In this document: piece after piece, positions 1 through 22,075 of the stretch
Layout of the letters: each line of letters starts with the position of its first letter
Numbering within the stretch: position 1 is the first letter of the stretch
Position numbers and translations under genes: made by a program
Notes under the pieces: generated by a model
What the model saw: only the letters and a program-made list of their open reading frames with translations
Told to the model about the DNA's origin: nothing
The model's database searches: none
Source of the DNA: Obrimoposthia wandeli
Lineage: Eukaryota
Direction: 5' to 3'
Assembly (NCBI GenBank): GCA_977020255.1
Contig: CDROCS010002367.1
Span: forward strand, 1 to 64,000
DNA length: 64,000 bases

Positions 1-1125
1 ATCAACTGGTTCAGTTACGTGGTAACTAGTCGCGGCATATGGGGTAAGAACACCAAACTAAAGCATTCATTGCCCCTAGTTGGCAATTAGGATACATTCA
101 TTGCCTTGCTTATTTGGTAATTGCGAGTGTAATATATTTTAACCATATTCATTGTCCCTAGCTGACAATTAGGATGGCTGTCTCTTTAACAAATCATTGT
201 CCCTAGTTGACAATTAGGATTGTCCATTTTTATTCATTGTCCCCAGTTGACAATTAGAATTGTACGAGTTTTTTCCCGTAAGATTCATTGTCCCCTAGCT
301 GACAATTCGGTTTCACTCATTGTCCCTAGTTGACAATTTCGGTCCACTCATTGTCCCTAGTTGACAATTCAGTCCTCATCCCTAATTTGACAATTCGGAA
401 CAAATACTCATTGTCCCCTAGTTGACAATTCGGTCCACTCATTGTCCCTAGTTGACAATTCCGGTCCCTCATTGTCCTAATGACAATTCAGTTCCTCATT
501 GTCCCTAGTTGACAATTCGGTCCACTCATTGTCCCCTAGTTGACAATTCGGAACTAGCCTCATTGTCTTAGTTGACAATTCGGAGTAAGTTTTTCATTGT
601 CATCGTTGACAATTAGGTTGTTTGGGAATCATTGTCCACAGTGGACAATTCGTGGTTAAATACTCAACAGATAGAGTTACGGACTCAAGAAACTTTATCA
701 CACATAAAGTTGAGTCGAAGAAATTTAAAGGTGCGTTATAGATTAACCAACCTAGGAAAAAATAACCCTAAAATCTCGATCACCGAACGTAAAATCGATA
801 CGTGGTTCATCCCCACTTCTTGTAGAGACTTACAGAAGTCTTAGGAATTTTACCATACTTTTTAGAAATACGTACATAAACGTATTGTTGTGTTTAGTTA
901 CATGTGAATTACCAATAAACAATTTCCTACATTAGAGAACAAGTTGTTTTACCCTTCAGAATAAAGACATCAAATCAAATACCTTCAGATAGTACAACAG
1001 AGATAGGCAACCATAACACTAAGTAGGCCACGACCAACTTTAAGACCTGCTTCTAATCAGAACTCACGTTGGGGCCCTCCGCACATAAGAGGATCTGTAC
1101 CAAGTTTCGTATAGAAACCCCAACA
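1..1125 (+). repeat. 5' LTR (3' part only)
   Basis: Aligns by eye to ~21601-22543 and ends ...GAAACCCCAACA; AATAAA at 914-919 is shared with 22345-22350. Confidence 0.9.
65..652 (+). repeat. Array of palindromic ~21-bp units CATTGTCCC(C)TAGTTGACAATT with short variable spacers, in the 5' LTR
   Basis: About 16-17 units by eye; each has the ATTGTC...GACAAT inverted repeat. Confidence 0.9.
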
Positions 1126-1133
1126 TATTAAAG

Positions 1134-1925: not shown

Positions 1926-2571
1926 CAGTAAATTTGATAAAGTGAAATCGAGTGGATTGATAATCGAATTAATTAATTGAATAAGTTAAGTCAGGAGACT
2001 CTGTCCTAGAACTAAATAAAAATTTAAAAATCGTAAATAAATTTGATAAAGTGAGAATCGAGTGGATTGATACTCGAAGTAATTAATTGAATAGGTTAAG
2101 TCGGGAGACTCTGTCCTCGAACTAATTAAAGAGATAAATCGTAAAATAAGAATTGTGAAATAAGATAAAAGAGTAATAAGTAAATTGATATCGTAAACGA
2201 ATACATAATTGATAAGACAACGGATAATAGAAAAGGACCCGCGTATAATACTAGAAGACAAAGTCAGATTCCCAAGGAAGAGATAAATAATAATAAAGTT
2301 AACCGAATTGAACAGGTTCCCCAAACAGATAACAAAGTAACAGAAAAAGACTAGAGTCGAAGAAAACGTATCAGACAGAGACGTAAATCAATCAGCAGTT
2401 TCAACCGACAGTTTTGAGCTGACTGAGTTATTTGGTGAAATAAACCCAGAAGAAATTGATAATCTTGAAGTTCAAAACCCAGAAGAATTTGAAATTGCCA
2501 ATCCAGTAGTGATTGAAGAAGTTCAAGTAAATAATATTGAAGAAATAGTTGAAGACGATATAGTTGAAAAT

Positions 2572-4246
2572 ATGGCTCAACAAGGAGCTCCACCAGATAT
2601 TAATGCAGGAAATAATGTAGGTGAAATGAATGCCGAGCAGTTGGAACAAGCTTTAAATGCGACGTTGAGACCCAATTTTTCAGGATCATTGCAGATTACA
2701 AAGTTTAAAGGAGATGAGGAAAGTATTTGTGACTTCCTCGCAGAATATTCGAGTTGTGCAGATGTTCAAGGATGGAACGATAAAGAAAAATGTGTCAGAG
2801 TACAGGCACATTTAACCGGATTAGCACTTGAAGTGTATAAACATTTGACAGAAGCAGAACGCATAGATTGGCCAACGTTGGAAAATGCTTTTATTGGAAA
2901 ATTGGTATTAGGAGACTTAGCCAAAGTAAATAAGCGACTCATGAGAGAACGGAAACAGAAACATGATGAAGGCGTGAATGAATACGCGTATGTTTTGAGA
3001 ACCTTGGCCGCAAGAGCGTACCCATAAATCAGGACGGTAATCCTGTAGCTCCAGAAGCACAAGCAGCGGAAAATGACCGGAACCAAAATGAAATGGCAGA
3101 GGTTTTGTTAGATATATTTAGAGGAGGATTGAAAAGGGACATTAAAGTGTTATTAGCAGTATCGGATACAAATGATTTTGATAACGCCGTGCGAAAGGCG
3201 AGAGAGATTGAGAAAAATATAAAAAATAACGCAGCATTGGCAATTTACGCAATGACTGCAGGTGACGACGATAAGACAAAGGTCTTCGTGAATAAAACAG
3301 AACCGAGTAATTTTCAGAATCGAAATTATGGACAAAATAAGTTTGAAAAAGTAGATGAATCTAGTAACGGAAATAGAGATAATTTCCGAAGTAGGAATCG
3401 AGATGATTCGAGAGGTAGAAATAATAGTGAGTCTTGGAACAGGAATCGAGATGATTCAAGAGGTAGAAATAGTAATGATTCGTGGAATAGAAATAGAGAT
3501 GATTCCAGGAATAGATTTAATAGAGATAATTCAGGAAATCGCCAACCTTGGAGAGGAGACGATAGGAATTATAACCCAAACAGAGGAGAGCGAAGTGACT
3601 CTGGATTTGAAAATAATACAGGAAGTAGTGACGGAAGATTCAATAATCGAGGAAGCGGTTTTAAATCGAATTTCCGAAGAAATGATTTTAGAGGACGATA
3701 TGATAACAGACAGAATAGTCGTCGAGTACAGTTCGAAGATGAACAGAATAAGATAGATATTCGAGGGAGAATAATGTGTTACACGTGTAAACAAATGGGT
3801 CACTATTCGAGAGATTGTACGAGAAGTAAAGAGTTCGGAACTAACAGATTTGGAAATAATAATTTCGGTAATACTAATCTTGGAAATAATTATAGAGGAT
3901 ATAATTCACCCCGCCATGGAATAGAGGTGGTGGATATACTCCACAGCCATGGAGACCGAATAATCAGTATACAGATAGACAACAGTCACCAGGTAGATAC
4001 AATAACTATGCAGACAGACAGCAAGGAGCTGAGAGATACAATAATTATGTAGGACAGCAAGGAGCTGAGAGATATAATAATTCCGGTAGATATAATAATA
4101 ATAATGTTGACAAGACAAATAGTCGCGAGAGTTCGCCGAAACCGAAAGGAAATTTTAGTTATGTAAACGATGACAGCGATAGGAATCGCGAGACCGAACT
4201 TCGACGCGAAATAGATTTTGAAGATAGTGATAGTAAATTTGAACGA
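2572..4246 (+). CDS. gag: Gag: capsid domain, Arg/Asn/Gly-rich repeats, CCHC zinc knuckle (frame breaks at ~3025 and ~3910)
   Basis: ATG in good context at 2572; Ty3-like CA (KFKGDEESICDFL...WNDKEK...LTGLALEVY...W..L...F; FRGGL); CYTCKQMGHYSRDC at 3777-3818; after a -1 correction at ~3910 the frame runs directly into ORF 4247. Confidence 0.9.
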
Positions 4247-5955
4247 ATGTTGGGAATAATTAAAGATTCACCACATACAAAGATGGCGAATTCATCTACG
4301 TTGTCGAAACAAGAAAAAAGTCTACACTCGAGAGAAGAGATGAATGATTTAATGAACCAAATACTAGAAGCGTATGAGACACCAATAGAGAAAACGTGTA
4401 ACGCACAACCTATGACTGATCACATAGAAGCAGCAAGAAATGCTACGAGTATGGAAAATGTAGAAAAGATAATTAGTGAAGCTAAGGAGACGTTGAATCA
4501 ACCGTTAGATGAAACAAGTGAAGCTCCAGAAGTTTTGGCCAAATTGCAAACAATTAAAGTACACAGATTGGAAGAAGTGCGAGCAGAATTGGTTAAACAT
4601 AGTCATGATAACTTGGGTTACAAAGAAGTACCACGAGGATTATTGAAAAGATATGGTCGCTACGTACAGAGATCAAACCAAAAAGGAACGATGAAAATTT
4701 TGCTTCGATTAATTTCCGGACAGATTATACATGAAAAACTTAACGTGTATCAGACAATGAAAACGATTCGAAAAAAGTTGGCAGAAAAACTTGAAATTGA
4801 TGGAATGAATATGTTGTTCCATTATAAAGGAAGATCACTAGATGATGAGGACGTACCAGTCGAGTGTGGATATCCGATAGGAAACGAATTAGAGGAAAAA
4901 ATTGATGTCATCACTGTAGGACGTCAAGAGTTAGTAGATAATGAAGGATTAACAGAGATATTAAACTCTGCGTTAGAAATGATAAAAACGCCTATAGAAA
5001 TTTTAGACAGTTCAAGCGAAAGCGGAGATAATGATGTAGCTGAAGCTTGGAACAAGACATTCACACCAGAACCGTACGTAGCTGAATTACAAGACGTGAA
5101 TTTAGAAAATGAGTTGACGACTCCAGTGGTCGAAGTACCACCAGAACCAGATATAATTCAAATCAGACAAGATGAAGTCACGGATACAGCTAACCAAGTG
5201 AGACAAAACGAAAACGTAACCCAACTAGTAGGAGAAGACGAAATCTCCGAGATTGTAGATTTGGATTCACCAATTTGGCATGCTGCATACAGAGATAGAC
5301 AAGCAGAGCAGATGATGCGACAAAACGAAGAGATTGGCCATGAAGAAGGACCAAGTCAAGAGATACAGTATAATGGTGAACCGTATGATCCAGGCGAGAA
5401 TCAAACTGAGTATCAGTATTTTCGAAGAGGACCTGGAAGACCTAGAAAAGACGGGAGTATATTACGAAATGTTCTAACTGCACCACAGACTGATGAGGAG
5501 AGACATCTAAGCATTGGACAGTTAGCAGCGTCATTAGAGCAATATAGTACAGGAGCGGAATGAAGATATCAGAGGCGATATGAATTGGGAAGTTGCAAGT
5601 TGTACCGATCTACTTACGTGAATTCTAAGGCAAGTGAATCCAAAGTTGTTCAAAATGTACAAAAGATGAAACAACCGATATAACAGACAATTTGACTAAA
5701 GCAGTTAGATCACAAATGTCTGCAGTAAAGAGAATGACTGCGAATCATGTATACCATGCATCAATAGATAGATTTTATGACGGTGAAGTTTTAGCGAGAT
5801 TATGTGGAAACCAGACTACAAATAAAAAGTTAATTACAGCGATCACATATCTATGTTTCCAATTGACGGAACGAACGAGCCAACCTCACGAAGTCAAACA
5901 AGGAATAAATGAAGCGATGTATTTGATCGAGAATGTATTAGCAGAAACGAATTGA
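4247..5955 (+). CDS. Gag C-terminal extension with SUMO/ubiquitin-like domain (4691-4923), acidic linker and AT-hook (5423-5449)
   Basis: MKILLRLISGQII...LFHYKGRSLDDEDVP...EKIDVI resembles Ub/SUMO beta-grasp sequences; RRGPGRPRK is an AT-hook core; in-frame TGA at 5561-63 and a -1 break at ~5662. Confidence 0.6.
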
Positions 5956-6097
5956 CGAAAACGGAGGTTGGGCAAAATTAAGTGACTACGCTAAAACCAT
6001 TGTGGAAATGAACGAAGACGATGACGAACAATGTCATGAGAATAGTCAAAGAGAAAATAAACAATACTGTCCGAAAGAAAGAAATAATCAACCAAAT

Positions 6098-7970
6098 ATG
6101 TCCACAACAATGATGATGATGATGTTAGTAATGTTCATGGGAATGCAACAGGCATCAGGATTGATAGCATACGACTGTAGCATACCAAAGATGGGACAAA
6201 AGTATTCACTGCTTGACAGCGAAGACTGTCCAGAATCACAACCGTCAAAATTAGAAGTTAAAGGTGTTGAAAACTACTTTGTGTATCAGGATGTTGATAA
6301 AGTACAAGTAGAAGTGAAGAATGTGCAATCCATTCAAGTTATCACGAATTCTATTGTGGCCATAAAAGTTTTATGTCGGAAATCACACCTACCACACCGT
6401 ACAAGGCACATAAGGTTTTGCCGAGAGATTGCGAAGACGCATTTCGAACGGGAACGATAGAGGTAGACAAGAATTACAAACCTGAAGTAAAAATTGGAGT
6501 GAGACGATACGAAACAGTCACGAGAGTCGGACAACGATGGGCTGATGGATCTTGTGACGGAGAAACAAAAAACGTGCGTGGAACCAAAGTATCTGAGTTA
6601 GTAATGGACGTAACTTACAAAATCGACTTAAAAACATGGACCGCCAATTTTGATAAAAAGACACAACTAATGATGAAGTATCCAGAATGTAAAATGACAG
6701 ATACATCTTGTTTTACAGGCGAATCCACAATTGTGTATCAAGTGAATCCGAAGCAATGCTCTTTAGTATTTTTGAAAGAGATTAGTTTTAATAAAATAAA
6801 AGGATTCCTGTATAATAAAGATGGAGAAGGGTTCCTGTATAATAAAGTTGGAAAAGGATTGCTAAATGAAACAAGACCAATTCCAATGACAAAGACACCT
6901 ACACTGTTAATGGCAACATCAATAGAAGAAGGATTGATATTTATTAAAAAGAGAAACAAAGCGCGATGCGGAATGACTGTTAGTACTACAAACTATCCAG
7001 GAATAGTTTTGTCCAAAGAAGCAATAGCATTGGCAGAAACCAAGCTAAAACCAAAAGATATGCAGCTACACACGTATTTTAATAATAAAATTGATTTCTA
7101 TTATCATAAAGGATTGATGCAAATGGAACAGTTATATCGGATGATGATCGAAAGAGATTGCCAGCTAAACAAAGAGATCGTAAGAACAAAGTTAGCATTA
7201 GCTATTACGAATCCAGACATGGTAGCACCATTATTACCCTTGGATGAAGGAGTATTTGCTAAAACCATGGGAGAAGTATTGTATACTTACAAGTGTAATA
7301 AAGTAGAGGTACAGTTGAGAAAAACAGATCGATGTACGAGTGAATTAGCAGTAACGTATAATTTAAAAGATCTTTTTGTTGAACCAATCACGAGAATGTT
7401 ACTTCCAAAAGACACTCCAACTAAAGAAATCAGCTGCTCTAATATAATGGCACCTGAATATCAGATGACGAATGATCTATGGATAACGTTACCTGATCGG
7501 AAGCCAACGAAAACCCCAGCGATGATAAGAATGACGAATCTTAAAGGTAAAATGAAATTCCAAGCGGTGGAAAATATGGAGAACGCAGGATTGTACAATG
7601 AAAAAGATTTAAAAGCGGCGTGGAACGAAATAATGTTTCCAGTAAAAAGAGCCAGAGTACTTACGGAGATGGTACATCGAGCATTACCGCCAGGAGCTAG
7701 ATATGCGAATTTCGATATGTTATTATCGCCAAGTCATTTCAAGGAAGCAGCACATCAGACACTTAGAAAGATGTGGGGGAAATTCCTTGTTTTAGGACAA
7801 TTATTTTCGGGTATCATAGGTATTTATGTTATAATTAAATTTGTGCAGGTAATTATAGCCCAGGTGTTGTCTACGTATAGTTTATACAGGATAACCGGAA
7901 TCACCTGGCAACTTATAATTGGATGTTTTCCATTTTTAGCAAAATATCTAATGCACCATCATCACGAGAA
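6098..7970 (+). CDS. env: Envelope glycoprotein, chuvirus-like (class III, gB-like); frame break at ~6318
   Basis: Signal peptide MMMMMLVMFMGMQQASG then LIAYDC; after correction ECAIH...FYCGH; YFNNKIDF..., RDCQL..., GEVLYTYKC.KVEV, C..EL.V, LFVEPITRML, AGLY...IMFP, and two C-terminal hydrophobic segments all follow the chuvirus-like glycoprotein pattern. Confidence 0.85.
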
Positions 7971-8313
7971 CGAGTTAAGAGCCCTCAAGAAGGAACAACA
8001 CCAAACGAGAACCATGATGCGAGAACCAAGAAACTATCGAGACGACAACGACGACGATAATGATAGTCCAGGAGTATATGCAAAGATACCAGGAAAACCA
8101 AAGATTCCGTTACCAGACAAGGAAGAAGTGGCGTTAAACATATATCCAATGAAGGAACTAAAGGAGGAGAAGGAAAAGTTCAAGAGAGGCATCTTAATGG
8201 TAAGATGGCCTAAAGTGAGCTACAGTGAAATTCCACAAGCAGAGGAAAAAGACAAAAAAGATAATTCCAGAAGAATTCTGAAATCTAGGATATCAAATGA
8301 GAATCCAAATGCT

Positions 8314-8612
8314 CCACCACAAGTAGCAGTAACATTGAACGGAAGAGAATATCTTGCCGAGGTTGATACCGGATCTGCAGTATCAGTACTGAGTAAAGAA
8401 ATCTTGTCATCAAAAGAATTAAGAGAAGTATGTCCTAGAAAACAGACATTTGTTAACGTGAATGGTACAGATGTAGTGTCGGAAGGAACACTGAAATGTT
8501 CATTGAATATCGATGGAAGAGCATTGCAGTTAAATGCTAGAATATTCACAGATTGCGGTAGTCCAGTCATGATTGGGATGGACGTAATACGAATGTTTGA
8601 AGGAATAATTAT
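8314..8612 (+). CDS. Retropepsin-like aspartic protease 1, in frame with env
   Basis: LAEVDTGSAVSVL (DTG 8365-8373) and IGMDVI motif within ORF 6373-8931. Confidence 0.9.
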
Positions 8613-8844
8613 ACTACCAAACAACAAGAGTTATAAGAATGACAGTTCAGTGAGAGAGATAAAAATGTTGAGAGGACCCATAGTCGAAAAGGAAAAATGC
8701 ACTACGTTCCGTATGGGAGGTTCGTACCCAGACAGAAAACAGGAAGCGCTAGTAAAGTCGATACTTCACTACAAAAACGTAAACCTCGGACCACAAGAGA
8801 TGACGAGGAGAAAAATAACATATGTGAATCTGTCAGAAAGGGAT

Positions 8845-9840
8845 CCCATGAGATTCGAGAGAAAGAGACGAAATATATTAGAACAGTACTATTCAAAGAA
8901 ATGGCACGTAAAATGGCAAGATCAGGTTTAGAAATGTTAAACGCGACAAGTAGTTATGGTCATGAGGAAGTAGTACGATGCGTATGGTGTAGAGTAAAGT
9001 TTAGAGAGTGGGAAAAGAATGAGAAACCCAATGAGACGTCATAAAGAGATGCACCAAATTGTCCATTTCTTTTGAAACTAAAAACTTCAAACGTACCAGA
9101 AATCCAAACGGGAAAAGCACCCGATTTCGATTACAGTGACGGGATTCCAAAAGGAGAATCAGCTCTAATAACAGGTAGAGTAATAACGAATAGTCGAATT
9201 GAAGATATATTCGAAGTTATGCGAGAAGTGAACGAATGTGACGAACAGTATCGAGAAATAACCTTCGAAGACCCAAGACTTAAAAATTGGCAAAAAGGAC
9301 TTTTGCTATAAAAAAGGATGGTAAAGACGTAATTAAATGCCACAAGTGTAAAAAGAACGAATTATCGACAGATATACTCTTGAGCTACCTAAGAAAATTT
9401 TACATCATGAATTTTGCGAATTTTGTATTTTTAAAAACAAAATAAAGCAAAAAGAACAGAAAACCGAATGTATAATCGAATACCAAATCACACGGAAAGA
9501 GATTTTGGCTCAACAAGACACACCGGTAGTGTCATTCGTGAGAAGGTTATATCCAAAAGAAGCAGAAAGAATCAGAGAATTGGTAGAATTAAAAATAAAA
9601 ACTACGCGAAACGGATACGGATCGATTTTTGAATTACTGCGAGATAAAGATGACAGTACAATTGAAACAAAAGAGAAAGAGTACATAAATGAACTAGAAT
9701 ACGTACTAGAAGATCCGGAATGCGCAGTTTGCATGGTCAACAAAATAGAAGTTGCCTTTCTACCATGCGGACATGTAAGAACATGTCGGAGATGTGCGAA
9801 TGAAATGGTATCATGTCCAATTTGTCGAAGAATAATAGAT
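8845..9840 (+). CDS. Inhibitor-of-apoptosis (IAP) module: BIR, degenerate BIR, UBA-like, RING
   Basis: VRCVWC...W...P..(RH)KRDAPNCPF restores C-x2-C-x16-H-x6-C after a +1/-1 pair at ~9036-9046; second BIR-like D.IKCHKC...HHEFCEF at ~9260-9430; IRELVELKIKTTRNGYGSIFELL resembles the IAP UBA; CAVCM...FLPCGH..TC..CA.....CPICR at 9721-9828 is an IAP-type RING. Confidence 0.88.
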
Positions 9841-9949
9841 CGACAAGTGAGAAACATTAGATTTCACTATCCAAACAAAGGAAGTGGACTGACAGAGTGT
9901 AATAATTCGATAAATACAATATACCATATGGGAAACATAAATGGAGCAC

Positions 9950-12900
9950 AGCGACCAGCAGCTATCATTAGAGTAAATAATTTAAGAGTAAAAGCCTTAA
10001 TTGATACAGGTGCTGTAGCTTCGATAGTAAGTGAAGACTGTTTGACAGAGGAACAGAAACGAACAATGGCAGAACCAGATGAATTCTTGGTATCGGTCAA
10101 TGGAGACCCTGTAAAAGTGACAGGAATATTACCATGTACATTTATAATTGGACGTAATACGATCACTATACCAGTTAGAATCATGAAAGAATGTCCTGAA
10201 CCTACAATTTTAGGAATGGATGTATTATCACAACTCAAAGGGATAAGTATTGATTTACAAGATCCAAGATTGAAGGATAGCACATCAAACAGACAAATAA
10301 ACCAAATTGATGTAATTATAGAGAATCCTATAAAAATCGGTAAAAGATCACAATTTCTCATTCAAGGTCACACATTATCAGAAGATAAAGGACCAGTTGT
10401 GTTCGAACCATCACGAGATTTCATAGAGAAATACGAATTACCAGTTGTGAGTACAGTATGCCTGATCGAAAACCACAAAATACCAGTTAGACTGATGAAT
10501 ACAACCAACAATGACATTCTATTATACAGAGGAATGAGGTTGGGAAAGATAGCACAGATGGAGAATTCCACTGTATGCGCTATGAAACTCGATAAAGATA
10601 CGAATGATTACGAAGAAATAGTAATCCAATCAGAAAGACTGACAACTAGAGAAAAGAAACAATTACTTGATCTAATACATAAATTTCCGAAAGTAATTGC
10701 AAAAAATCCATATGACATAGGAGAAACACCTGTCATAAAACATACAATACCACTGACAGAAGACAAAGTAGTCAGAAGAAGACCATATCGAGTACCATTA
10801 CAATTACAAGATGAAGTAAAAAGTCAGATCGAAGATATGTCTAAAACAGGAGTAATTAGACCGAGTTTTCGCCATTCTCAGCACCTGTGGTGCTGGTAAA
10901 AAAGAAGGATGGGAAAATGAGATTCTGTATAGATTTCAGAGAACTGAACAAGATCACAAGAAAAGATGTGTATCCATTACCTAGAATCGAAGAGATGCTC
11001 GATAAATTGGGTAATTCAGATTATTTTACGACATTAGATTTGCAAAGTGGGTACTGGCAAATCGAGATAGAGGAAGAGGATAAACACAAAACAGCCTTTT
11101 CCTGCGGAGATGGATTATACGAATGCGAAAAGATGCCATTCGGACTGACAGGAGCTCCAGCAACATTTCAGCGTTGCATGAATTTTGTACTCGCATCGTG
11201 TGCAAACACGATGGTTTATATTGATGACATAATAATATTTTCGAAAACGTTCGAAGAACATTTAAAAAATCTGGAAGTTGTATTTAAAAGACTGGAAAAC
11301 GCTAAATTAAAAGTTAAACCTACAAAATGCGAATGGGCTAAAGAGCGAGTAACATTTTTAGGACATATAGTATCGAAAGAAGGCATTCGACCGGATCCAG
11401 CAAAGATCGAGAAAGTAAAAGCGCATTTAGCGCCAAAGACTGTTAAGGAGATACAGAGTTTTTTAGGTCTTGCGAATTATTATAGACGATTTGTTGAACA
11501 TTTTTCAGATATAGCAACACCATTGAGAAAGTTGACGAGGAAAGATGAGAAGTTCATATGGGAGAAGAAGCCCAACAAGCGTTCGAGCATTTAAAAGAAA
11601 GACTGATAAAAGCACCGATATTAGCGTTTCCAGATATAAACCGACAATTCATACTCATGACAGATGCAAGTAACTATGCTGTAGGAGCAGTATTGGGACA
11701 AGAGGATGACGAAGGAAGAGAACACGTCATCGCGTATGCGAGTAGAGGATTAAACAGAGCCGAAAGAGGATACTCTGTTATCGAAAAGGAATGTCTAGCC
11801 ATAGTGTATTCATGTAGACAGTACAGACACTATTTGCTAGGACAAAAAGTATTCCTGTATACAGATCACAAACCACTACAGTTCTTATATAAACATAGAG
11901 ATGAGATGAGTAGATTAAACAGATGGTTTCTAAAATTGGCCGAATTCGATCTAGAAATCCGTTATAGAACCGGAAAGTCGAACGGCAACGCAGATTGTTT
12001 GTCGAGATTGACAAATGTAGACGAGAAAGGAAACATAATTCCAGAAGAAGATGAAACCAATGACCAAAAGGAGAAGCAAATCTACTGACGATTTTGCTAA
12101 AAACGGGTAAAATAGACAAAGAAATCATCAAAGAACAGAAAGAAGATGAAGAGCTGAGTCTAATCAAAGAATTGTTGGTGAAAGGAGATCTAAACGATGA
12201 AATGACGAAAAAATACTCGATAAAAGAAGGAATCTTGTATATTGTCAATAATGTCGGAAAGATAGTAGTAGTAATTCCGAAGTCATTGAAAACAGCAGTG
12301 ATGATCCAGTATCACGACGGAACACTAGGAGGACATCTGTCAGGGCGAAAGACAATAGCCAGAATCAAAGAGAAGTACCATTGGGATGGTATGGAAGACG
12401 ACATAAAACAATGGTGTAAACAATGTAAAGTATGTTTAACCAGAAAAGACACCGGAACTCGTACTAAAGTTCCACTGAAACCAATGCCAGTTCCTTTGGC
12501 ACCAATGGAATTCACAGCGATGGATATATTGGGACCATTGAGAGAATCAAGTAAAGGAAACAAGTACGTCATAGTATTTACAGACTTTATGACGAGATGG
12601 GTAGAAGCATATCCCATGCAGAACCAGAAAGCTGAAACAATAGCGCAGATTTTAGTGGAAGAGATAATATTTCGATACGGAGTGCCTAGAAAGTTGTTAA
12701 CGGATCAAGGTAAGAACTTCACTGGAGAAGTCATAAAAGCAGTATCGAAGATATTCGGAATCATGAAGTTACAAACTTCACCATATCACCCACAGACAGA
12801 TGGTCTGGTAGAAAGGTTTAATAAAACTTTATGTATGATGGTACAATCCTATTGCTCAGACAAGCAAGAGGATTGGGATAAATATTTACCTTCATGTTTA

Positions 12901-13400
12901 TATGCTTACAGGAATTCAGTTCGAGAGGCGACGGGTCACACACCATTCTATCTGATGTATCTCAGACAGAACAATATGCCGATGGATCTGGAGTGGACCG
13001 AGCCAACATCTCAGTACCTAGAAACTGAACAATACATTGTCGTCATGAAGGAAAGATTACAAGATGCTTGGACCAAAGCCGGATTGAAGTTGAAATTCAA
13101 TCAAGAAGGTTACAAGGAACAATACGACAAAAAAGCAAAACCACATGAATTTAGAGTCGGAAATCAAGTGATGATATTTTATCCAGTCATCGAACCAGGT
13201 CTATCGTTTAAACTTCATAGACCATACAAAGGACCATACAAGGTGATCCAGACAACCTCAACAAATTTGAAAGTAATCAACGAAGAGAATCGGAACAAGG
13301 AACCGATGATTGTACATGCAAATCGATGCAAATTAGTACCAAATAAAGATAATGCGTCACGATATGAGTTAAGATCACAGAAATCGAAATCGAATACCAA
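9950..13400 (+). CDS. pol: Pol: aspartic protease 2, reverse transcriptase, RNase H, integrase (breaks at ~10868, ~11560, ~12082)
   Basis: ALIDTGA (DTG 10003); RRRPYRVP; VLVKKKDG.MRFCIDFRELN; YIDD 11217-11228; TDASNYAVGAVL and TDHKPL; IN HHCC, AMDILGP, TDQG, GLVERFN, GPY. Confidence 0.97.
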
Positions 13401-13521
13401 TACCATTAAACTTACACGAATGGTAAGTGATCGGAACTACATAAACATGATGACGAGTGGTAGCGAGAAAAAACCAGCGAGAATTGGTATGCTCAGAATG
13501 AAGTACCAAGAGGAAAAGGAA

Positions 13522-14495
13522 GTAATCCGACACATCGCACCACAAGAGATATTAGAAGAAGACGAAGAGATAATAGTCGTTTTCGAAAAAACACAACCAA
13601 CAGATGTAGCTAAAGAAGTCATTGTGAAAGATGCACTAACAAACGAATTTCTGTGCGAACTTAGAGTGTCATACTATGACGGAAATACACTAGTCGCAGC
13701 GCTTTATCAAAATTCCAATGTGTTTACGACTGAGAAAGTGATAATCGAAATCACATTGACACCAAACATAGTTGCATGGCAGAACTATGACAGTACTGAA
13801 GCAGGACTAGCCAGTCAGGAAGAAAAAGAACCGGCCGGTGGTCACATACTGCATGGTACACCAAAAAGACTCAAACAAGAATACCACGATGTAATAATGG
13901 TATTACGTAATTCACATGGGAAAAGAGATATCATGAGAGTCCATTTAATCGACGCTGACACTGAAAAGATAATTTGTCAGATGGACACCAAATACTTTGA
14001 TGGAAAGACAATTGTATGTTGTATACCAGAATCTCACCGGTTAGACACAGATCAAACGGAAGTATCTGTAAGGTTGAGCGTAATAGAAGGATTCCATTCG
14101 CCAACCCATCCGGAAGTGACTAACAATAAAATCATCAAAGCAACGGCAGAGTTACGCATTGACAGCGGATACCGAAAGTGGGAAGCTAAAATAAAAAACC
14201 ACAAAGAATCAATATGATCCGAGAACAAGTGACCAACTCAATCCAGCCAAAATATCATGCTGAAATAGTATCATCCGCGCCAAGTGTGATCACATCGATA
14301 AACGACGAAATTATAATTTTACTAAAAAATCGATGGCCGTCATCAACCGAAATACGAGTAAATTTAATTAATTATGCGAAAACACCGATATCTAAGCTGA
14401 ATGTTACCTATTTTGATGGATTGTCCATCATGGGTAAATTGGAAACAATTGTCATGTGCTATGGAGCACAGTTCCAAGTTGAGATACTTAAAGAT
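13522..14495 (+). CDS. Three tandem ~80-aa Ig-like (IPT/TIG-like) repeats after integrase
   Basis: Repeats at ~13522, ~13843 and ~14262 share I..xP....(D/E)(I/V)I(V/M/I), a V...D/N segment and Y(Y/F)DG.(T/S)(L/I). The repetition is clear; the IPT fold is inferred. Confidence 0.55.
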
Positions 14496-14951
14496 AGCGT
14501 AATACCATATCCGATTCACAAATACGAAGGGGAAATCAATCCAATTATTCTAACCCCTTCATTAATTTCAGTTCAGACAGACATACCAGAATACCCTTCG
14601 AGCGAGTCTAGTGAAGACAGCGAACCAGAAAGTAACGATACAGAATCAACAGAATCTGAAGATAACATAATAGAGCGATTCGGAAGAACCATGGAGGTTG
14701 AATTCGCTAAAGAGAGCAGAAAAAGACAAAACATAGAATTCGTGAAACAGAATATACAAGAAAGACGAATTAAATCAGCAGAAGAGACCGAGTCGGAAGA
14801 AGACTCAACAAAGGAACAGACACCAGAGACAAAGATGAATATCTCTCCAGCAATACGAATGCTGAGAGGAAAGAAACTGGCGAAACTATCCAACATCGAC
14901 GAACAGATAGAGAAGAGATTAGAAAGACTAAAACTTGAAGAGTCAGAATTA

Positions 14952-15380
14952 ATGCCACCAATGAGTGAGATCATTCCAGGTAAGTTATACCTCGGAAATG
15001 TGGAGGATGCAACAGATGAAAAGAAACTGTTGGAACAAGGGATAACATACGTGATCAACGTTACAATGAATCACAAATCACAATATCAGACAATCAGAGC
15101 TATGACATTAAGAGTAAAAGACTCAATGGACGCTAATCTTCTCGAATGGTTCGTAGAAACAAACGAAATACTTCACAGAGAACTCCGGAACCAAGGAAAA
15201 GTATTGGTACATTGTCAGAAAGGAATTTCTCGATCAGCAACTCTAGTATTAGCATACCTAATAAAGACTAGACGAATGCAGGTACTAGAAGCGCTAAAAT
15301 ACCTACAGGAGAGGAGAAGTATTGCAAACCCAAATCTTAATTTTTTGGGACAGTTGGCAAATTACCAACTTCTGTTGCAA
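14952..15380 (+). CDS. Dual-specificity (MKP/VH1-like) protein phosphatase with intact catalytic motif
   Basis: EIIPGKLYLG...GITYVINVT...VKD...VLVHCQKGISRSATLVLAYL...ANPNLNFLGQL; HCxxGxSRS at 15210-15236. Confidence 0.95.
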
Positions 15381-15477
15381 GAACAAAGACGGATGGATGA
15401 CATTCCTGAGGATCCAAAGGAAAAGAATTTCCTCCAAGCATTATCATTGACCGGGTTATTCTTAGCCGGAGTCGACA

Positions 15478-15900
15478 AAATTACACAGATAATGCCAAAA
15501 GTATTTTTATGTCATCCAGGAGATATAGACACTGCTGGATTAAAGTTCCACAGTATCAACCGAGTAATCAAAATTGTTGAAGTCGGAAACGAGATAATTA
15601 GTCTGTGTCAAAATACTGAAGACGACACCACTCGATACATACATGCTTCCAATCGAGAAATAAACGATGCACAACAACATCTGACGAAATTGACTCAAAC
15701 CATCCAAGCCGAAGTCACAGAAGGAAACGGCGTTCTGATATATCAGAAAAAAGGTACAATGTTAGCGCCAACCATAGGTGTATCCTTGTTGGTAGAGTAC
15801 CATGGTCACACGCCAGAAGAAGCGATGGTCTACATCAAACAGAATAGACCAGATACGGAATTCAAACCGTTACTCGTTCGAGAAATAGAGAAATACACCG
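15478..15900 (+). CDS. Second, catalytically dead DSP-like domain (pseudophosphatase)
   Basis: ITQIMPKVFL...INRVIKI...GNGVLIYQKKGTMLAPTIGVSLL...EEAMVYIKQNRP parallels DSP1 but lacks the catalytic Cys and Arg. Confidence 0.75.
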
Positions 15901-15944
15901 AAAAGAGGAAGCAACAACGAGAAACAAATTAAGCTACAACAACA

Positions 15945-18632
15945 GTGCCCAGCTTTCAATACCAAAGATTGCTAGCGATAGGCTTGTTAAGTTGTCTAAT
16001 GCCGATAACGGGAGCACAGGAGATAGGCTCCAACCACGGAAATAGTTCCTGGTTCAACGAAATCCACAATTACACCATACAGTACCATACGCCGGCACTG
16101 ATGATGCTATTAGTGTTGTTAGGACTAATTGATGTATGGATCATCCGAAAATGTCTTCGATCCGTGAGAACCGACAGTAAAAGATTTCAGTTTGTAAAGA
16201 TGAAAAGACCAAATGGACCAACGAACAAAGTGCTTGTGTATCTAGACGAAAGGATCGAAGACAACATAGTAAATGAAGCGATATTTTACCCACAAAACAG
16301 AATACTGAATCAATTTCGAATAGATTACGAAGCTGACCGACAGCGCACACTTGACCGAATATCAACAACATTCGCCGGATGCAAGCGAAGAAAACTAGTT
16401 GTAAAGGAAATACAAAAAGATGCTGATACAAAAGGACCAACGTATATATTCGACGGCGATGTCATCAAAACACGTGAGTATGGAAGTAAGAGAGTGATAA
16501 TTGAAACAATGGAAGGACATAAAACATGCTTGTCCGCCAAAAATGGATTCGGAAAGTTGACGATACAAGGTAAACCGGTACAGTTGATTATCGGAAGAAA
16601 TGGAATCGAGGAGATGTTAAAACAACGACAGACAACAAAACGATCCAGTCAGAAACAGATATCTCTCAAACGATTGATAATTAAAACCCTTTGCAAAAGG
16701 TCAGTCAAGGCCCTGTGCACCGTTGCACAAGGATTGATTTATGGAGTAGTAATTGGATTGGTACTGCAAGCCATGCCAACCAGTAAAGCCGAATTGATGA
16801 CACTATCCGAATATAATTTACATTTGAGAAATCTAGACAACACCCTAGAAATAATCAAGACATCCCACAGTAAAGCCGTGATGATCATGTGTGTAAAAGG
16901 ATGTCCAGGACGAATGTGTATAGTCCCAGCGACCGAAATGATAACACTTAATGGACATTATGGAATTAGTGTTGTCACATGTGAAGACTACATATTTGGA
17001 CAAACTAAAATAGTACTTCTCAGTGACATGTCCAACCAAAGTGCACACAAATTTAAAATATTAACCATCAAGAGTAAAGGAATACCAGCAGTACGTTACG
17101 GTATTCTAGAATTGGTTAATCCAATACTCGCACTGATCATTGGATTTATAATATTAATATTACTCATCTTGTTTTGTTGTACAAAGATAGAGTTGAGATC
17201 AAAAAAGAAACGTCATGATCTCGCAAGACGAACAGGTCAAATGAACTTACAAAAATTCAACACAATTATACCAAGACCACCATTTCTAGATGAACCAGCA
17301 CCAGAGTACCAGCCAACGATATATGAACATATCGAGGAAAGAACGTACTATATGAGTAATTTGACTTGTTTCATTGAAGTTCCTGAGTTTAGGAATCGAA
17401 CGATCATAGGAATCATGCTGATCATACAAATCACCACTACCAAGGCTAGTTATGAGATCATGATCAGTAAATGGAGACAAGACGTAATACGGGCAGTATA
17501 CATAGAAATCCCCCTTCTAAAAACAAATCACGTAGTAGACATTCATCTACAGATGTCAGCAACCGACAATATCGATCAGAAATTGTATGTCATCCGACAG
17601 GTCAGAATAAAAATCGACCAAAATACACCCGATTACAATTTAATATTATTGTATCATGAAAGAGTGTTATATCTACGGATAACAATATCAAAGAGGAAGC
17701 GGATTATCCAAAGTATCCGAACAAAGTCATTAATATTGCCTAGAGATGAGCGCATCTGGAAAATTGTCGACAGGATTATTATCACAGGTAGACGACGTAA
17801 AGCCGTATGGAATTCCGTTAGGATATTTTTCAGATTGCTAGAAACCGACAGAGTAACAGTAATGTGTTCCAACCCAGATGGCGGAATCAGATTCGAAATC
17901 CAAAGCCAAATGTTAGTACCACATTTTAACACAGAATGTCTGTGTAATCGAATTTCCAGTAATACTACAGAGACCTCGACCATAATCATGATAATAACAG
18001 GTGAAATATTCTACATAACTCTAAGATACCAGAACCGTCGATTTCGTAGATCCGGTATAAGTATCAAACCCAGGAAAATCATTCCCAAAAGGCCAATCCT
18101 AGTCAGAAAGAAGGCAAAAGTAAACGAAAGTAAACGTCATTCCAAAAAACCGACAGTGATCAGAACAAAGACAGAAGCGAAAGAAAAAGAGCTCAATCCC
18201 AGAAACCAAAGTACAATTATTAAGAGGACAAGAGTGAGGGGAACGATCCCACTAGATCCCAAACATCATTTCCAATCCAAAATAATAATACCTGTTCCAT
18301 CAGAAACAAAACACCCAAATCCCCGAATTTTTAGAAAATCGGACATAATACATGGAAACCGATCAAAACCCATGGAAATGTCATTCGAACCGACAAACAA
18401 CAAAATGAAGTATGATTATAAATCATCAGACAGCGGAATAACAGCGGTCAATGCCCTAATTGGAATGGCCGTAGTGTCAACAGCAGTGGTTCTATTGACA
18501 ATCGTGTGCGTGAAAGGCAGTCAAGTATGCCCAAGAATACGACGAAAATGCGAAGGATTGCGATGCTGTGACACACCCACCATGGAGGAAGTGGAATTGC
18601 GACCCTTACCTCCGCCTCCAATCAAGATATGA
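15945..18632 (+). CDS. Unknown multi-membrane-segment protein (signal-peptide / TM / tail units); in frame with the DSP ORF across TAA 15930-32
   Basis: 895-codon open frame with several hydrophobic stretches, signal-like ends (PITGA, PTSKA, TTTKA), Tyr motifs and a Cys- and Pro-rich C-terminal tail. Confidence 0.7.
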   Translation: MPSFQYQRLLAIGLLSCLMPITGAQEIGSNHGNSSWFNEIHNYTIQYHTPALMMLLVLLGLIDVWIIRKCLRSVRTDSKRFQFVKMKRPNGPTNKVLVYLDERIEDNIVNEAIFYPQNRILNQFRIDYEADRQRTLDRISTTFAGCKRRKLVVKEIQKDADTKGPTYIFDGDVIKTREYGSKRVIIETMEGHKTCLSAKNGFGKLTIQGKPVQLIIGRNGIEEMLKQRQTTKRSSQKQISLKRLIIKTLCKRSVKALCTVAQGLIYGVVIGLVLQAMPTSKAELMTLSEYNLHLRNLDNTLEIIKTSHSKAVMIMCVKGCPGRMCIVPATEMITLNGHYGISVVTCEDYIFGQTKIVLLSDMSNQSAHKFKILTIKSKGIPAVRYGILELVNPILALIIGFIILILLILFCCTKIELRSKKKRHDLARRTGQMNLQKFNTIIPRPPFLDEPAPEYQPTIYEHIEERTYYMSNLTCFIEVPEFRNRTIIGIMLIIQITTTKASYEIMISKWRQDVIRAVYIEIPLLKTNHVVDIHLQMSATDNIDQKLYVIRQVRIKIDQNTPDYNLILLYHERVLYLRITISKRKRIIQSIRTKSLILPRDERIWKIVDRIIITGRRRKAVWNSVRIFFRLLETDRVTVMCSNPDGGIRFEIQSQMLVPHFNTECLCNRISSNTTETSTIIMIITGEIFYITLRYQNRRFRRSGISIKPRKIIPKRPILVRKKAKVNESKRHSKKPTVIRTKTEAKEKELNPRNQSTIIKRTRVRGTIPLDPKHHFQSKIIIPVPSETKHPNPRIFRKSDIIHGNRSKPMEMSFEPTNNKMKYDYKSSDSGITAVNALIGMAVVSTAVVLLTIVCVKGSQVCPRIRRKCEGLRCCDTPTMEEVELRPLPPPPIKI

Positions 18633-18755
18633 TAAGTCAGATGAGGTTGTAGATAAATTAGTGTGTGAAATATGTAGAAATGTCTAGAAGCGATTGTACA
18701 AATAGTAGAAATATATAAAACTCATGTAGAAATTAATCATCATCATGTATTTAGA

Positions 18756-19055
18756 ATGTCCGAAGAATGCCCAATATGTTTGGAAGATCTAACCGAACGA
18801 AGAACAAGACCCGAAACCTGCAACCATTTACACCACGAGGAATGTTTATCGACATGGATCAGAACTTATGGACAGTTCGGACATCCAACATACCCTTGTT
18901 GCCCTGTATGCAGAAGACAATTCGCAAGATTCATCATGTTAGAACCCAACCAAGAGGATGTATATGTACAGGTGGTATTCTGTTGGAAGAATTTCGGAGA
19001 GTGTTGGTGTTATTACTGTTTGTCAGAACGACAAAATCCGACCACTTTTGTGTAA
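18756..19055 (+). CDS. RING-H2 protein 1 with extra C-x6-C-x-C-x2-C motif
   Basis: CPIC...CNHLHHEECLSTW...CPVCR; CWKNFGECWCYYC. Confidence 0.88.
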   Translation: MSEECPICLEDLTERRTRPETCNHLHHEECLSTWIRTYGQFGHPTYPCCPVCRRQFARFIMLEPNQEDVYVQVVFCWKNFGECWCYYCLSERQNPTTFV

Positions 19056-19115
19056 ACATCACACAACCACCAGTCCTCAATCGAGCCCAAATTCAACATC
19101 AACCCTCTCACAGTA

Positions 19116-19421
19116 ATGTCTGGAGAATGTTCCATCTGCTACGAGAGCATTGTGGACTTCTACACCAAGCCCAACAACTGCGACCACCTCTTCCACGTCG
19201 AATGCCTCGAGACGTGGATCCCCATTGCCAACAGCAACAATCCCCTCGACTTCCCAACCTGCCCGATGTGCAGAGCGACCTTCTCAGTACACTACGTGTA
19301 CAACCAGGACAGCCTCCAAGCAGTGGTACCCATAGTACACTGCTGGAAAACCATCTGCGATTGCTGGTGCTCGTTCTGCGTGGAGGAGCGAAGCACAGGC
19401 CAGCCCAACTCCCAACAATAA
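19116..19421 (+). CDS. RING-H2 protein 2 with extra C-x6-C-x-C-x2-C motif
   Basis: CSIC...CDHLFHVECLETW...CPMCR; CWKTICDCWCSFC. Confidence 0.9.
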   Translation: MSGECSICYESIVDFYTKPNNCDHLFHVECLETWIPIANSNNPLDFPTCPMCRATFSVHYVYNQDSLQAVVPIVHCWKTICDCWCSFCVEERSTGQPNSQQ

Positions 19422-19760
19422 TCGAAGGTAACTTTCTGACTTGAACGTGACATCATGAACTACCCTGTGTATCGCATACCGCGATAAATTAGCTACCATA
19501 ATTGTAATCATAATTATATAATCTTGTGAACTGTAAATTGACCATTACCATTTTTATGTATGATGTTTAACTGAAAATTGTAATTATTATACTGAAATTC
19601 TAAAAGACAATTTTTATGCTTAGTGTGAATGCGTAAACATGCCTAAAATCGGAACAAAACTCGGTAGGATTAAATAACTAAGGATTCGTTTTGAAATAAA
19701 ATTTAAATTAACGATGAGAACGGTGAACCCCAAATTGAAAGGAGTTATTTTCTTGTGCAG

Positions 19761-20258
19761 ATGAAGTGTACCGTCTGCCTCGAGAAAATTTGGACGGCAT
19801 CGGCATCCCCTGTCGGCTGCCGTCACAAATTCCACGAATCCTGCCTATATACTTGGGCCCGACTTCGACCCGAAGGACACGTCAATTGTCCATTGTGCCG
19901 TACTCCCTTCGCGGAATGGACACTGCAGTGTCGAGGGCGCCACAAGGGCACCCATTCGCTCACCAGCTGTATTGGTGGCGAGCACTGCCATTGCCCCAAT
20001 TGTATCGCGCGCCGTCGCGATGCAAAACTCGCCCTCCGCGAGAAATATCGGTCAACCCGCGACCCTCGCTCATGGCAGCGTGGCCGTCAAATATGGCTCG
20101 GAAATCGCGGAGTACACGGGCGGTACACGACCATTTTTCACCCGAGCCAACATCTCACCATGCACCAGCAGATGATACTGTACAATGGCGGCCCACCATC
20201 GTATCCAGAACTACCACTGGAGCAGGTCTTGCTGTTCCTGAAGGACAGGAACGGTTGA
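19761..20258 (+). CDS. RING-H2 protein 3 with extra C-x5-C-x-C-x2-C motif and basic tail
   Basis: ATG at 19761; CTVC...CRHKFHESCLYTW...CPLCR; CIGGEHCHCPNC. Confidence 0.88.
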   Translation: MKCTVCLEKIWTASASPVGCRHKFHESCLYTWARLRPEGHVNCPLCRTPFAEWTLQCRGRHKGTHSLTSCIGGEHCHCPNCIARRRDAKLALREKYRSTRDPRSWQRGRQIWLGNRGVHGRYTTIFHPSQHLTMHQQMILYNGGPPSYPELPLEQVLLFLKDRNG

Positions 20259-21069
20259 CATATCCCTGACAATCTTGTTGACATATCCCTGACAATCACC
20301 CTTAATCTTTTCTTGTGTGTAAATTTTTAGTTGTGATAAGTAATAGTGTATGGTTTGAGACTTGCTCCAAATTACACATTATGATTTCCACAAAAAACCG
20401 GGATTTTGAAAATTTTGTTTTGGGCTTGTTTGATGAGTTGAATGATTGATTTTGTAGGGATGAACCTAAAATCAACAGCCAGAGGCTAGTATAAGTAAAA
20501 TCGATACGTTCCGGGGACGTAACTTTTTTGGAACCCCCGAGGTATGTTAGGTTTAAGAATTAAGAAATTAAAATAATTTAGTCGATTAAATACTAAAATA
20601 AAAATCCTTGAAAGCAAGGTTGAAAATTAAATTAAATATTAATTTTAGATTCAAAATTGAAATTAGTGGAAGTTAGGATAAAAATTAGGAGGACCACGAA
20701 GGTCGTGTATAGTGTAGGATATATAAGGTTAGATTAATTAACCCAAAAGTGCAACAAAGGCACATTAATTAAAGCAAAAAGAAAAAGGGAACAATTTCGA
20801 ACGTCAATCAAGGTAAGCACATTTTCGTGCAGTTAAATTGGAGTACTTAAATTAATTTTTCAGCTGCCGCCAAAACTCCAGTTGAAACAGCTGTCGACAT
20901 TGCTGATTGACAGCCAAGGTTGAAGAAATCGACTATAAAAGTCGTCGACCAAAAAACAAACAGACACAACAGGAAAAATCAATACTTCAGATCGACTGAA
21001 GAAATCGACCACATATTGGTAAGTGGTGATTTGGTGAAATTTAGATTAAACCATTTTAGATCACAAATT

Positions 21070-21540
21070 GTTAAAGGAATACGAATCTATTGTTAAAGGA
21101 ATACGAATCTATTGTTAAAGGAATACGAATCTATTGTTAAAGGAATACGAATCTATTGTTAAAGGAATACGAATCTATTGTTAAAGGAATACGAATCTAT
21201 TGTAAAAGGAACACGAATCTATTGTTAAAAGAATACAAATCTGTTGTTTAAAGTTAAAAAGAATACAAATCTGTGGCTTAAAGGAATACAAATCTATTGT
21301 TAAAGGAATACGAATCTATTGTTAAAGGAATACGAATCTATTGTAAAAGGAACACGAATCTATTGTTAAAAGAATACAAATCTGTTGTTTAAAGTTAAAA
21401 AGAATACAAATCTGTGGCTTAAAGGAATACAAATCTATTGTTAAAGGAATACGAATCTATTGTTAAAGGAATACACATCTATTGTTAAAAGAATACAAAT
21501 CTGTAGCTTAAAGTTAAAAGAATATCAATCTATTGCTTAA
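21070..21540 (+). repeat. 22-bp tandem array GTTAAAGGAATACGAATCTATT with a ~140-bp higher-order duplication, inside the inferred 3' LTR
   Basis: 22-bp period seen directly; variant block repeated at ~21202 and ~21342. Confidence 0.9.
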
Positions 21541-21636
21541 AAGAAGCCGATCAGCTCAATAATCCCAACTAGACCCAGTACCGGATTGACGCAGTCGCAG
21601 CTAGTCGCAGCATATAGGTAAGAACACCGACTAAAG

Positions 21637-22075
21637 CATTCATTGCCCCTAGTTGGCAATTAGGATACATTCATTGCCCCTTGTTGGTAATTCGAAATTG
21701 TAATATATTTTAACCATATTCATTGTCCCTAGCTGACAATTAGGATTGCTGTCTCTTTAACCAAATCATTGTCCCTAGTTGACAATTAGGATTGTCCATT
21801 TTTATTCATTGTCCCCAGTTGACAATTAGGAATTGTACGAGTTTTTTCCCGTAAGATTCATTGTCCCTAGCTGACAATTCGGTTCACTCATTGTCCCTAG
21901 TTGACAATTCGGAACAAATACTCATTGTCCCTAGTTGACAATTCGGTCCACTCATTGTCCCTAGTTGACAATTCGGAACCAACACTCATTGTCCTAGTTG
22001 ACAATTCGGAGTAAGTTTTCATTGTCATCGTTGACAATTAGGTTGTTTGGGAATCATTGTCCACAGTGGACAATT
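21637..22075 (+). repeat. Palindromic CATTGTCCCTAGTTGACAATT array in the 3' LTR (~12 units)
   Basis: Same unit as 65-652 but fewer copies. Confidence 0.9.

Follow-up and report, generated by a model that had tools for sequence, protein, structure and literature searches.

We found that a module of the inhibitor of apoptosis (IAP) type lies between two retropepsins, PR1 and PR2, in a giant Gypsy long terminal repeat (LTR) retrotransposon of Obrimoposthia wandeli. The element occupies positions 1 to 22546 of the 64,000-nucleotide stretch of contig CDROCS010002367.1 that we analyzed as a whole (hereafter the window). Purifying selection acts on both proteases and on the IAP, strongly so on PR1. 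We propose that the element's own proteases probably free the IAP from its giant polyprotein as a RING E3 ligase that would lower caspase-driven death, a reading that draws on the order and conservation of the encoded domains and that we consider the best of those weighed below. The region consists of the following features:

8314 to 8625, plus strand: PR1, a retropepsin (Pfam aspartyl protease) with its catalytic Asp codon at 8365 (DTG)
8659 to 8670, plus strand: candidate linker IKML after PR1, a putative cleavage site
8713 to 8844, plus strand: IAP leader, with an in-frame Met at 8713 and an ILHY / RRK motif common to free relatives (alignment A1)
8845 to 9077, plus strand: BIR1, with ligand codons at about 8979, 8988, 9040, and 9060; frame breaks in the window copy
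9243 to 9438, plus strand: BIR2-like zinc site C-x2-C-x18-H-x3-C (Pfam BIR E 0.0055 in a sister copy, below cut-off); frame breaks in the window copy
9505 to 9675, plus strand: UBA-like helical domain, from a weak cIAP1 alignment and a fold model
9706 to 9864, plus strand: IAP-type RING (Pfam zf-C3HC4_3, E 4.1e-12)
9910 to 9921, plus strand: candidate linker INTI between RING and PR2, a putative cleavage site 31 codons before the PR2 Asp
9949 to 10254, plus strand: PR2, a retropepsin (Pfam aspartyl protease) with its catalytic Asp codon at 10003 (DTG)

An original prediction, made from the letters of the window alone, had placed the two DTG motifs exactly here with reverse transcriptase (RT) following, and Pfam confirms an aspartyl protease at both, with RT next. 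Each protease keeps D-T-G and a C-terminal hydrophobic-Gly motif that are conserved across copies: the catalytic Asp of PR1 is present in 56 of 58 copies (the remaining two are unaligned there) and the DTG of PR2 in all 58, so far as sequence tells, both look functional. The prediction of a BIR with restorable C2HC ligands and of an IAP RING also held. BIR1 scores above the Pfam cut-off even in the window copy when its stop is read as X (E 1.9e-07), its four zinc ligands are kept, in order, in 56, 58, 57, and 58 of 58 copies, and its model matches the fold of the BIRC6 BIR (Z 12.7, root-mean-square deviation (rmsd) 2.0, 86 residues aligned). The best BIR fold matches include DIAP1 BIR1 and XIAP BIR2, both of which were solved with caspases. 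The second BIR had been called degenerate; judged by its sequence it is instead a fixed variant that is not decaying, for its spacing recurs in 13 of the 15 more diverged copies, and seven of eight related IAP rows have a similar one. In a one-frame sister copy, Pfam recognizes two stretches each of protease and BIR. The predicted layout of BIR, BIR, UBA, and RING between two proteases thus stands, except that the UBA-like part has no Pfam match; it aligns weakly to cIAP1 in the correct order (c-E 0.001), and its model resembles the XIAP UBA (Z 5.2, rmsd 2.2, 56 aligned). Seven of the eight RING ligands are found in 58 of 58 copies and the remaining one in 57, the RING is nearest to those of cIAP1 and cIAP2 among solved structures, and its fold model also matches IAP RINGs. 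The closest solved relative of the whole module is cIAP1, with BIR, UBA, and RING matches in order (mean pLDDT of the IAP structure model, 67.5). The module therefore resembles cellular XIAP, cIAP, and DIAP1 in its BIR-(BIR)-UBA-RING order but differs from them in its altered BIR2 spacing, in an altered BIR1 groove, and in being embedded in a polyprotein with a non-terminal RING, the frame of which continues into PR2.

Selection was measured on a main set of 58 copies (two duplicate loci removed), counting variants common to at least three copies. Synonymous and replacement variants numbered 17 and 1 in PR1, 14 and 5 in BIR1, 9 and 4 in BIR2, and 36 and 1 in RT, giving ratios of replacement to synonymous variation (pN/pS) of 0.02, 0.08, 0.10, and 0.01, respectively. 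The corresponding counts were 11 and 0 in the UBA-like domain, 2 and 0 in the RING, and 8 and 0 in PR2; these three are biased low because protein identity over UBA to PR2 was the ranking criterion for half of the copies, a bias from which PR1 and BIR1 are free. Among 15 more diverged copies, which were ranked by likeness to the IAP protein P0002 so that their IAP values are skewed, pN/pS was 0.04 for each protease, 0.11 for the RING, 0.17 for the UBA-like domain, and 0.29 for BIR2. The original prediction had named two findings that would count against it, the loss of BIR ligands in all copies and an inactive, non-conserved PR1; we found neither, because PR1 is under purifying selection and the copies retain the zinc ligands.

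Copies of the family are very numerous, with 31,308 first-look candidates, 130 of which were scored. Frames of more than 5,000 codons, near the published lengths of Burro ORF1 (open reading frame 1), are held by 4 of these 130 copies, and a single reading frame spans Env, PR1, the IAP module, PR2, and Pol in sister copies. When copies were ranked by protein (30 copies, including the window copy and a near twin), a single frame ran from PR1 to PR2 with both protease motifs in 14, and in two further copies with one motif altered. The window copy itself has seven frame changes, at about 8894, 9022, 9042, 9281, 9296, 9300, and 9349, all inside the IAP, so that the complete IAP of the original prediction is not found in the window copy but is borne out by the 14 open copies. 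We considered a programmed -1 frameshift inside BIR2, as the break at about 9349 is found in 29 of 30 copies ranked by DNA identity, and rejected it, since 29 of the 30 protein-ranked copies are without the break; the apparently shared break is an artefact of the ranking by DNA identity. In run X5, which comes from another study, the contigs do not match the window at its breaks at about 8894, 9281, and 9349, and read-depth ratios from these contigs cannot yield allele shares. In addition, a deletion derivative on four contigs (L151, L157, L158, and L159) joins window position ~9447 to ~18396 and retains Env, PR1, BIR1, and BIR2 without UBA, RING, PR2, and Pol. In three copies of this derivative, BIR2 reads in frame into the hydrophobic C-terminal segment of the final long ORF, and the product is possibly a membrane-anchored, RING-less IAP of a non-autonomous subfamily. 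Two other copies, both on one contig (L155 and L156, joining ~9885 to ~18085), have kept PR1 and the entire IAP and have lost PR2 and Pol. A second Env-bearing family was not found among the 10 loci examined of 89 matches in the genome, all of which belong to the same family.

The protease-bracketed slot is not confined to elements with an IAP. A protein search of 1.84 billion representatives returned two polyproteins with the same Env, P0029 and P0038, neither of which has a BIR or a RING. P0038 has the order Env-PR-insert-PR-RT-RH-IN-PR (RH, RNase H; IN, integrase), its insert resembling two C2H2 fingers by eye, and P0029 has four proteases after Gag-Env, of which two share 50% identity, and its record ends without Pol. 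These layouts indicate that multiple proteases are a trait of the clade and that the contents between the first two vary; the slot is thus independent of its IAP cargo. Three word-indexed protein searches for other protease-flanked IAP polyproteins gave none or one unrelated match, which is weak evidence. Domain joints in the window element, P0029, and P0038 repeatedly carry words of the form I-x-M-L or I-N-x-I, and such a word stands 26-36 residues upstream of six of eight other proteases, against about 0.1 expected by chance; the spacing of INTI to PR2 lies within this range. One P0029 linker word is almost identical to window positions 5503-5530. The position of the RING also bears on release: in 80 of 105 IAP-type RINGs the protein stops exactly 13 residues past the last Cys, so that a RING with a protease and Pol behind it would be in an unusual position unless it were cut free. 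Free kin of the module have tails of 18-29 residues after the RING, and cutting at INTI would give a tail of about 31, close to the 27 and 29 of two of them.

On this basis, we propose that the IAP slot is a cargo position within the one giant polyprotein that a Burro-type Gypsy element encodes. The proteases, acting as dimers, would cut the I-x-x-L/I linkers after PR1 (8659) and before PR2 (9910) and so release a leader-BIR-BIR-like-UBA-RING protein of about 410 residues with its RING near a free C-terminus. The released IAP-type E3 ligase would then lower caspase-driven death of the expressing cell and thereby favor persistence of the element. PR1 would go with the Gag-Env half and PR2 with Pol, an assignment of PR1 that fits the four-contig derivatives, because these keep Env-PR1-BIR-BIR and lose PR2-Pol. 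The IAP itself may have arrived through a mobile-element IAP lineage shared with Mavericks, in either direction.

This last step draws on the other IAPs of the genome. Among the best 30 of 150 scored BIR loci, 10 belong to one repeat family and 18 to another; the free IAP frames of these families are 341 and 301 codons long. The other two loci are singletons. At three loci per family checked with their flanks, the IAP adjoins an A32-type ATPase and an rve integrase in both families, and one family also has PolB and a weak capsid match (E 0.023); given these ATPase, integrase, and PolB/capsid neighbors, the two families are Maverick-like. They are high-copy families with the free IAP beside the packaging ATPase (L111-L122); one of them also carries a phosphatase-like gene with a degenerate motif, and BIR2 is missing from the other. 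We did not accept a phosphatase exchange between element and Maverick, as identity is 31% and the motif is degenerate in the Maverick. In a 52-row tree, which took 45 of 77 eligible cellular-type IAPs with no labelled flatworm host IAP among them, the module and both Maverick IAPs group with P0002, P0003, P0005, and P0007 (themselves unplaced) apart from the cellular-type IAPs with an SH-aLRT support of 100, and a tree of the BIR alone gives the same split with a support of 81. Judged from these trees, the nearest sampled kin of the module are the free Maverick-like IAP genes of the same genome and not the sampled cellular IAPs. A Maverick IAP is a free gene that ends 18 residues past the last RING Cys, whereas the IAP of the element lies in frame between proteases. 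No host IAP orthologue was found among 88 scored P0002 matches, all 31-33% identical, of which the 15 examined were of the element family, though intron-split genes would be hidden from this search. The idea of a captured host IAP, part of the original prediction, is therefore weakened by the IAP phylogeny, within the limits of that sample. Bcl2 and IAP homologues are recorded in Mavericks/adintoviruses in passages of PMC8502044, and passages of PMC8532177 name Burro and Polintons as piRNA targets in planarians.

The LTR repeats and the order of Pfam domains identify window positions 1-22546 as one 22.5-kb Gypsy LTR retrotransposon, whose remaining features are:

1 to 1128, plus strand: 5' LTR, a direct repeat of ~21600-22546; the window starts at or just within the LTR
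2341 to 5563, plus strand: Gag with a CCHC knuckle and a ubiquitin-like domain (Pfam), split over three frames in the window copy
5719 to 5990, plus strand: weak BCL2-like stretch (Pfam Bcl-2 E 0.044 in a sister copy, below cut-off)
6100 to 8050, plus strand: Env-like fusion glycoprotein (Pfam Monjiviricetes_fusion, PF24664, E 1.4e-83), in frame with PR1
10860 to 13400, plus strand: RT, RNase H, and integrase in Gypsy order (Pfam RVT_1, RT_RNaseH, Integrase_H2C2, rve)
14980 to 15370, plus strand: dual-specificity phosphatase cargo 3' of integrase (Pfam DSPc E 7.6e-40)
21600 to 22546, plus strand: 3' LTR, repeat partner of the 5' LTR

The LTR pair differs by 12 mismatches in 931 ungapped columns. 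Pfam matches in the Gag region are Retrotrans_gag (E 0.0064), zf-CCHC (E 3.1e-06), and ubiquitin (E 0.014); the last, like the BCL2-like match, is below cut-off, and both precede Env in the published Burro order. The BCL2-like stretch has a low-confidence fold model for which BCL-2 proteins are just among the rows (Z 4.4-4.9), and positions 5719-5990 might be a second anti-apoptotic cargo, with weak support. Env is of the mononegaviral type and sits between Gag and PR, and in several sister copies a single frame runs from Gag to PR1. Between PR2 and RT, in the slot of the Burro dUTPase-like domain, lie about 120 residues under selection with no Pfam or PDB match. By these features the element is probably a giant flatworm-type Burro retrotransposon, of which the window holds one damaged copy, and it matches the published Burro. 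Passages of PMC6431247 describe planarian Burro/GYPSM1 as giant Gypsy elements of more than 20 kb with an ORF1 of 4,873 and 5,140 amino acids, and the likeness covers size, the single ORF of about 5,000 amino acids, Gag, CCHC, the weak ubiquitin-like and BCL2-like matches, the in-frame mononegaviral-type Env, PR, BIR, and RT-RH-IN. Burro was compared by description only, and the differences from those passages are that they name one PR, while here two PRs flank the IAP; that no MATH or ankyrin match was found here and the phosphatase lies 3' of integrase; and that one CCHC knuckle was detected here, against two or three in Burro.

Further along the element, positions 13480-15930, 3' of integrase, hold about 250 residues without a Pfam match, then the phosphatase, whose HCxxGxxRS motif looks intact, and a degenerate second copy. 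Downstream of the phosphatase, Pfam finds a second RING; positions 15933-20270 include an ORF of 899 codons that has multiple hydrophobic segments and lacks a firm Pfam match, together with a Cys-rich stretch at ~18755-19444 and the RING at ~19760-19900. Tandem arrays of ~48-base and 22-base units lie inside the element beside each LTR (1448-1943 and 21027-21559), and a stretch resembling a primer-binding site begins at 1134. Outside the element, positions 57141-57731 hold an unrelated integrase-like frame remnant flanked by a 161-base direct repeat (56229 and 58077).

It is important to point out that several observations weigh against our proposal. Cleavage, the cut sites, the targets, and the division of labor between the proteases are inferred from anatomy, reading frames, selection, and relatives; the linker pattern was picked after looking, and PR1 is without such a word at the expected upstream distance. 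BIR1 has R-H-K-R-D where cIAP1 BIR3 has E-H-A-K-W, the Glu and Trp of which we take to line the peptide groove, and with these two residues absent, direct binding of caspases or Smac by BIR1 is doubtful. Constraint is weaker on BIR1 and the leader in the 15 more diverged copies (pN/pS 0.51 and 0.69), and the low bias of the UBA, RING, and PR2 values in the main set has been noted. As for the kinship, the composition of the IAP clade is skewed, and the RING-only tree needs two changes to recover it, though Maverick RINGs are nearest (58% identity).

The missing groove residues, together with the non-canonical BIR2 spacing, would also suit a module that is released but acts mainly on something other than caspases, as an E3 or scaffold directed at signalling or restriction factors, in the manner of type I BIR-RING proteins. 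Within the IAP, constraint in the diverged copies is strongest on the RING and UBA, and the element also has a phosphatase and a second RING. We nevertheless judge this quite unlikely, given that caspase-bound DIAP1 BIR1 and XIAP BIR2 are among the best fold matches and that the Burro1 IAP is reported, second-hand in passages of PMC13465017, to protect against caspase-mediated death. An internal start is another unlikely route: a subgenomic or spliced RNA would begin at Met 8713 and encode IAP-PR2-Pol, so that PR2 alone would free the IAP while PR1 served Gag-Env. This Met is kept in 78 of 84 copies and lies close to the first-Met position of the free Maverick and P0007 IAPs, before the same motif, but its conservation is also expected under general purifying selection. 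Moreover, no recurrent splice-like joint was found among the contigs, and where upstream sequence is fused to the IAP, in two copies, each such joint was seen once among the matches scored (1 of 20 and 1 of 40).

The original prediction had also raised a recombination between two elements, which the two proteases would mark with the IAP as a passenger at the seam. PR1 and PR2 are indeed only 30% identical, and the nearest sampled protease to PR1 is the third of P0038 (34%); the protease tree itself has no resolved branch, and one of its rows (P0029 at 483) is a false motif match. We consider recombination very unlikely. It is not required, because IAP-less P0038 and P0029 share the layout of Env-PR-cargo-PR-Pol with three or four proteases, the two P0029 proteases that are 50% identical fit duplication in place, and the IAP is under selection.

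A bolder extension of our proposal, which we hold to be rather unlikely, is that the repeated proteases form a modular cargo bay in which PR1 and PR2 of one chain pair and the looped-out cargo is cut in the cytoplasm before particle assembly, with the IAP lineage moving between the retroelement and the Mavericks of the same host. Retropepsins act as dimers, and a predicted PR1:PR2 pair scored 0.48 against 0.00 for the best control, with at least 93% contact agreement between runs and a partner pLDDT of 77. In the benchmark of this prediction, passes at 0.60 or below comprised 5 of 78 solved complexes and all 4 passing mismatches, so the score may reflect likeness alone, since low passes include mismatches and retropepsin dimers are among solved structures.

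That such elements carry an IAP is already known: passages of PMC6431247 include BIR cargo in the Burro polyprotein, and passages of PMC13465017, citing a 2026 Dev Cell study (doi 10.1016/j.devcel.2026.03.001), state that the Burro1 IAP (B-IAP) protects planarian stem cells and acts against caspase-mediated apoptosis. B-IAP is likewise a BIR and RING cargo of a planarian LTR element, but it is described there as RING plus BIR, whereas the module here has two BIR-type sites and a UBA-like domain and is flanked by two proteases. A literature search found no account of two proteases flanking an IAP or of a link between Burro and Maverick IAPs, though the Dev Cell 2026 study and Grohme 2018, with their figures and supplements, may contain both. 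Relative to the known Burro cargo, the two-protease slot and the Maverick kinship thus look new. A RING buried in a polyprotein of 5,000 residues needs a way out, and two conserved proteases with candidate sites would offer a concrete route. That relatives combine three or four proteases with different cargo suggests a general design shared across the clade. The kinship with Mavericks raises the question of whether the IAP was taken directly from a host or passed between mobile elements. If the cargo bay were real, it would be a new way of making an accessory protein from a polyprotein and would imply a trade of genes between two viral realms.

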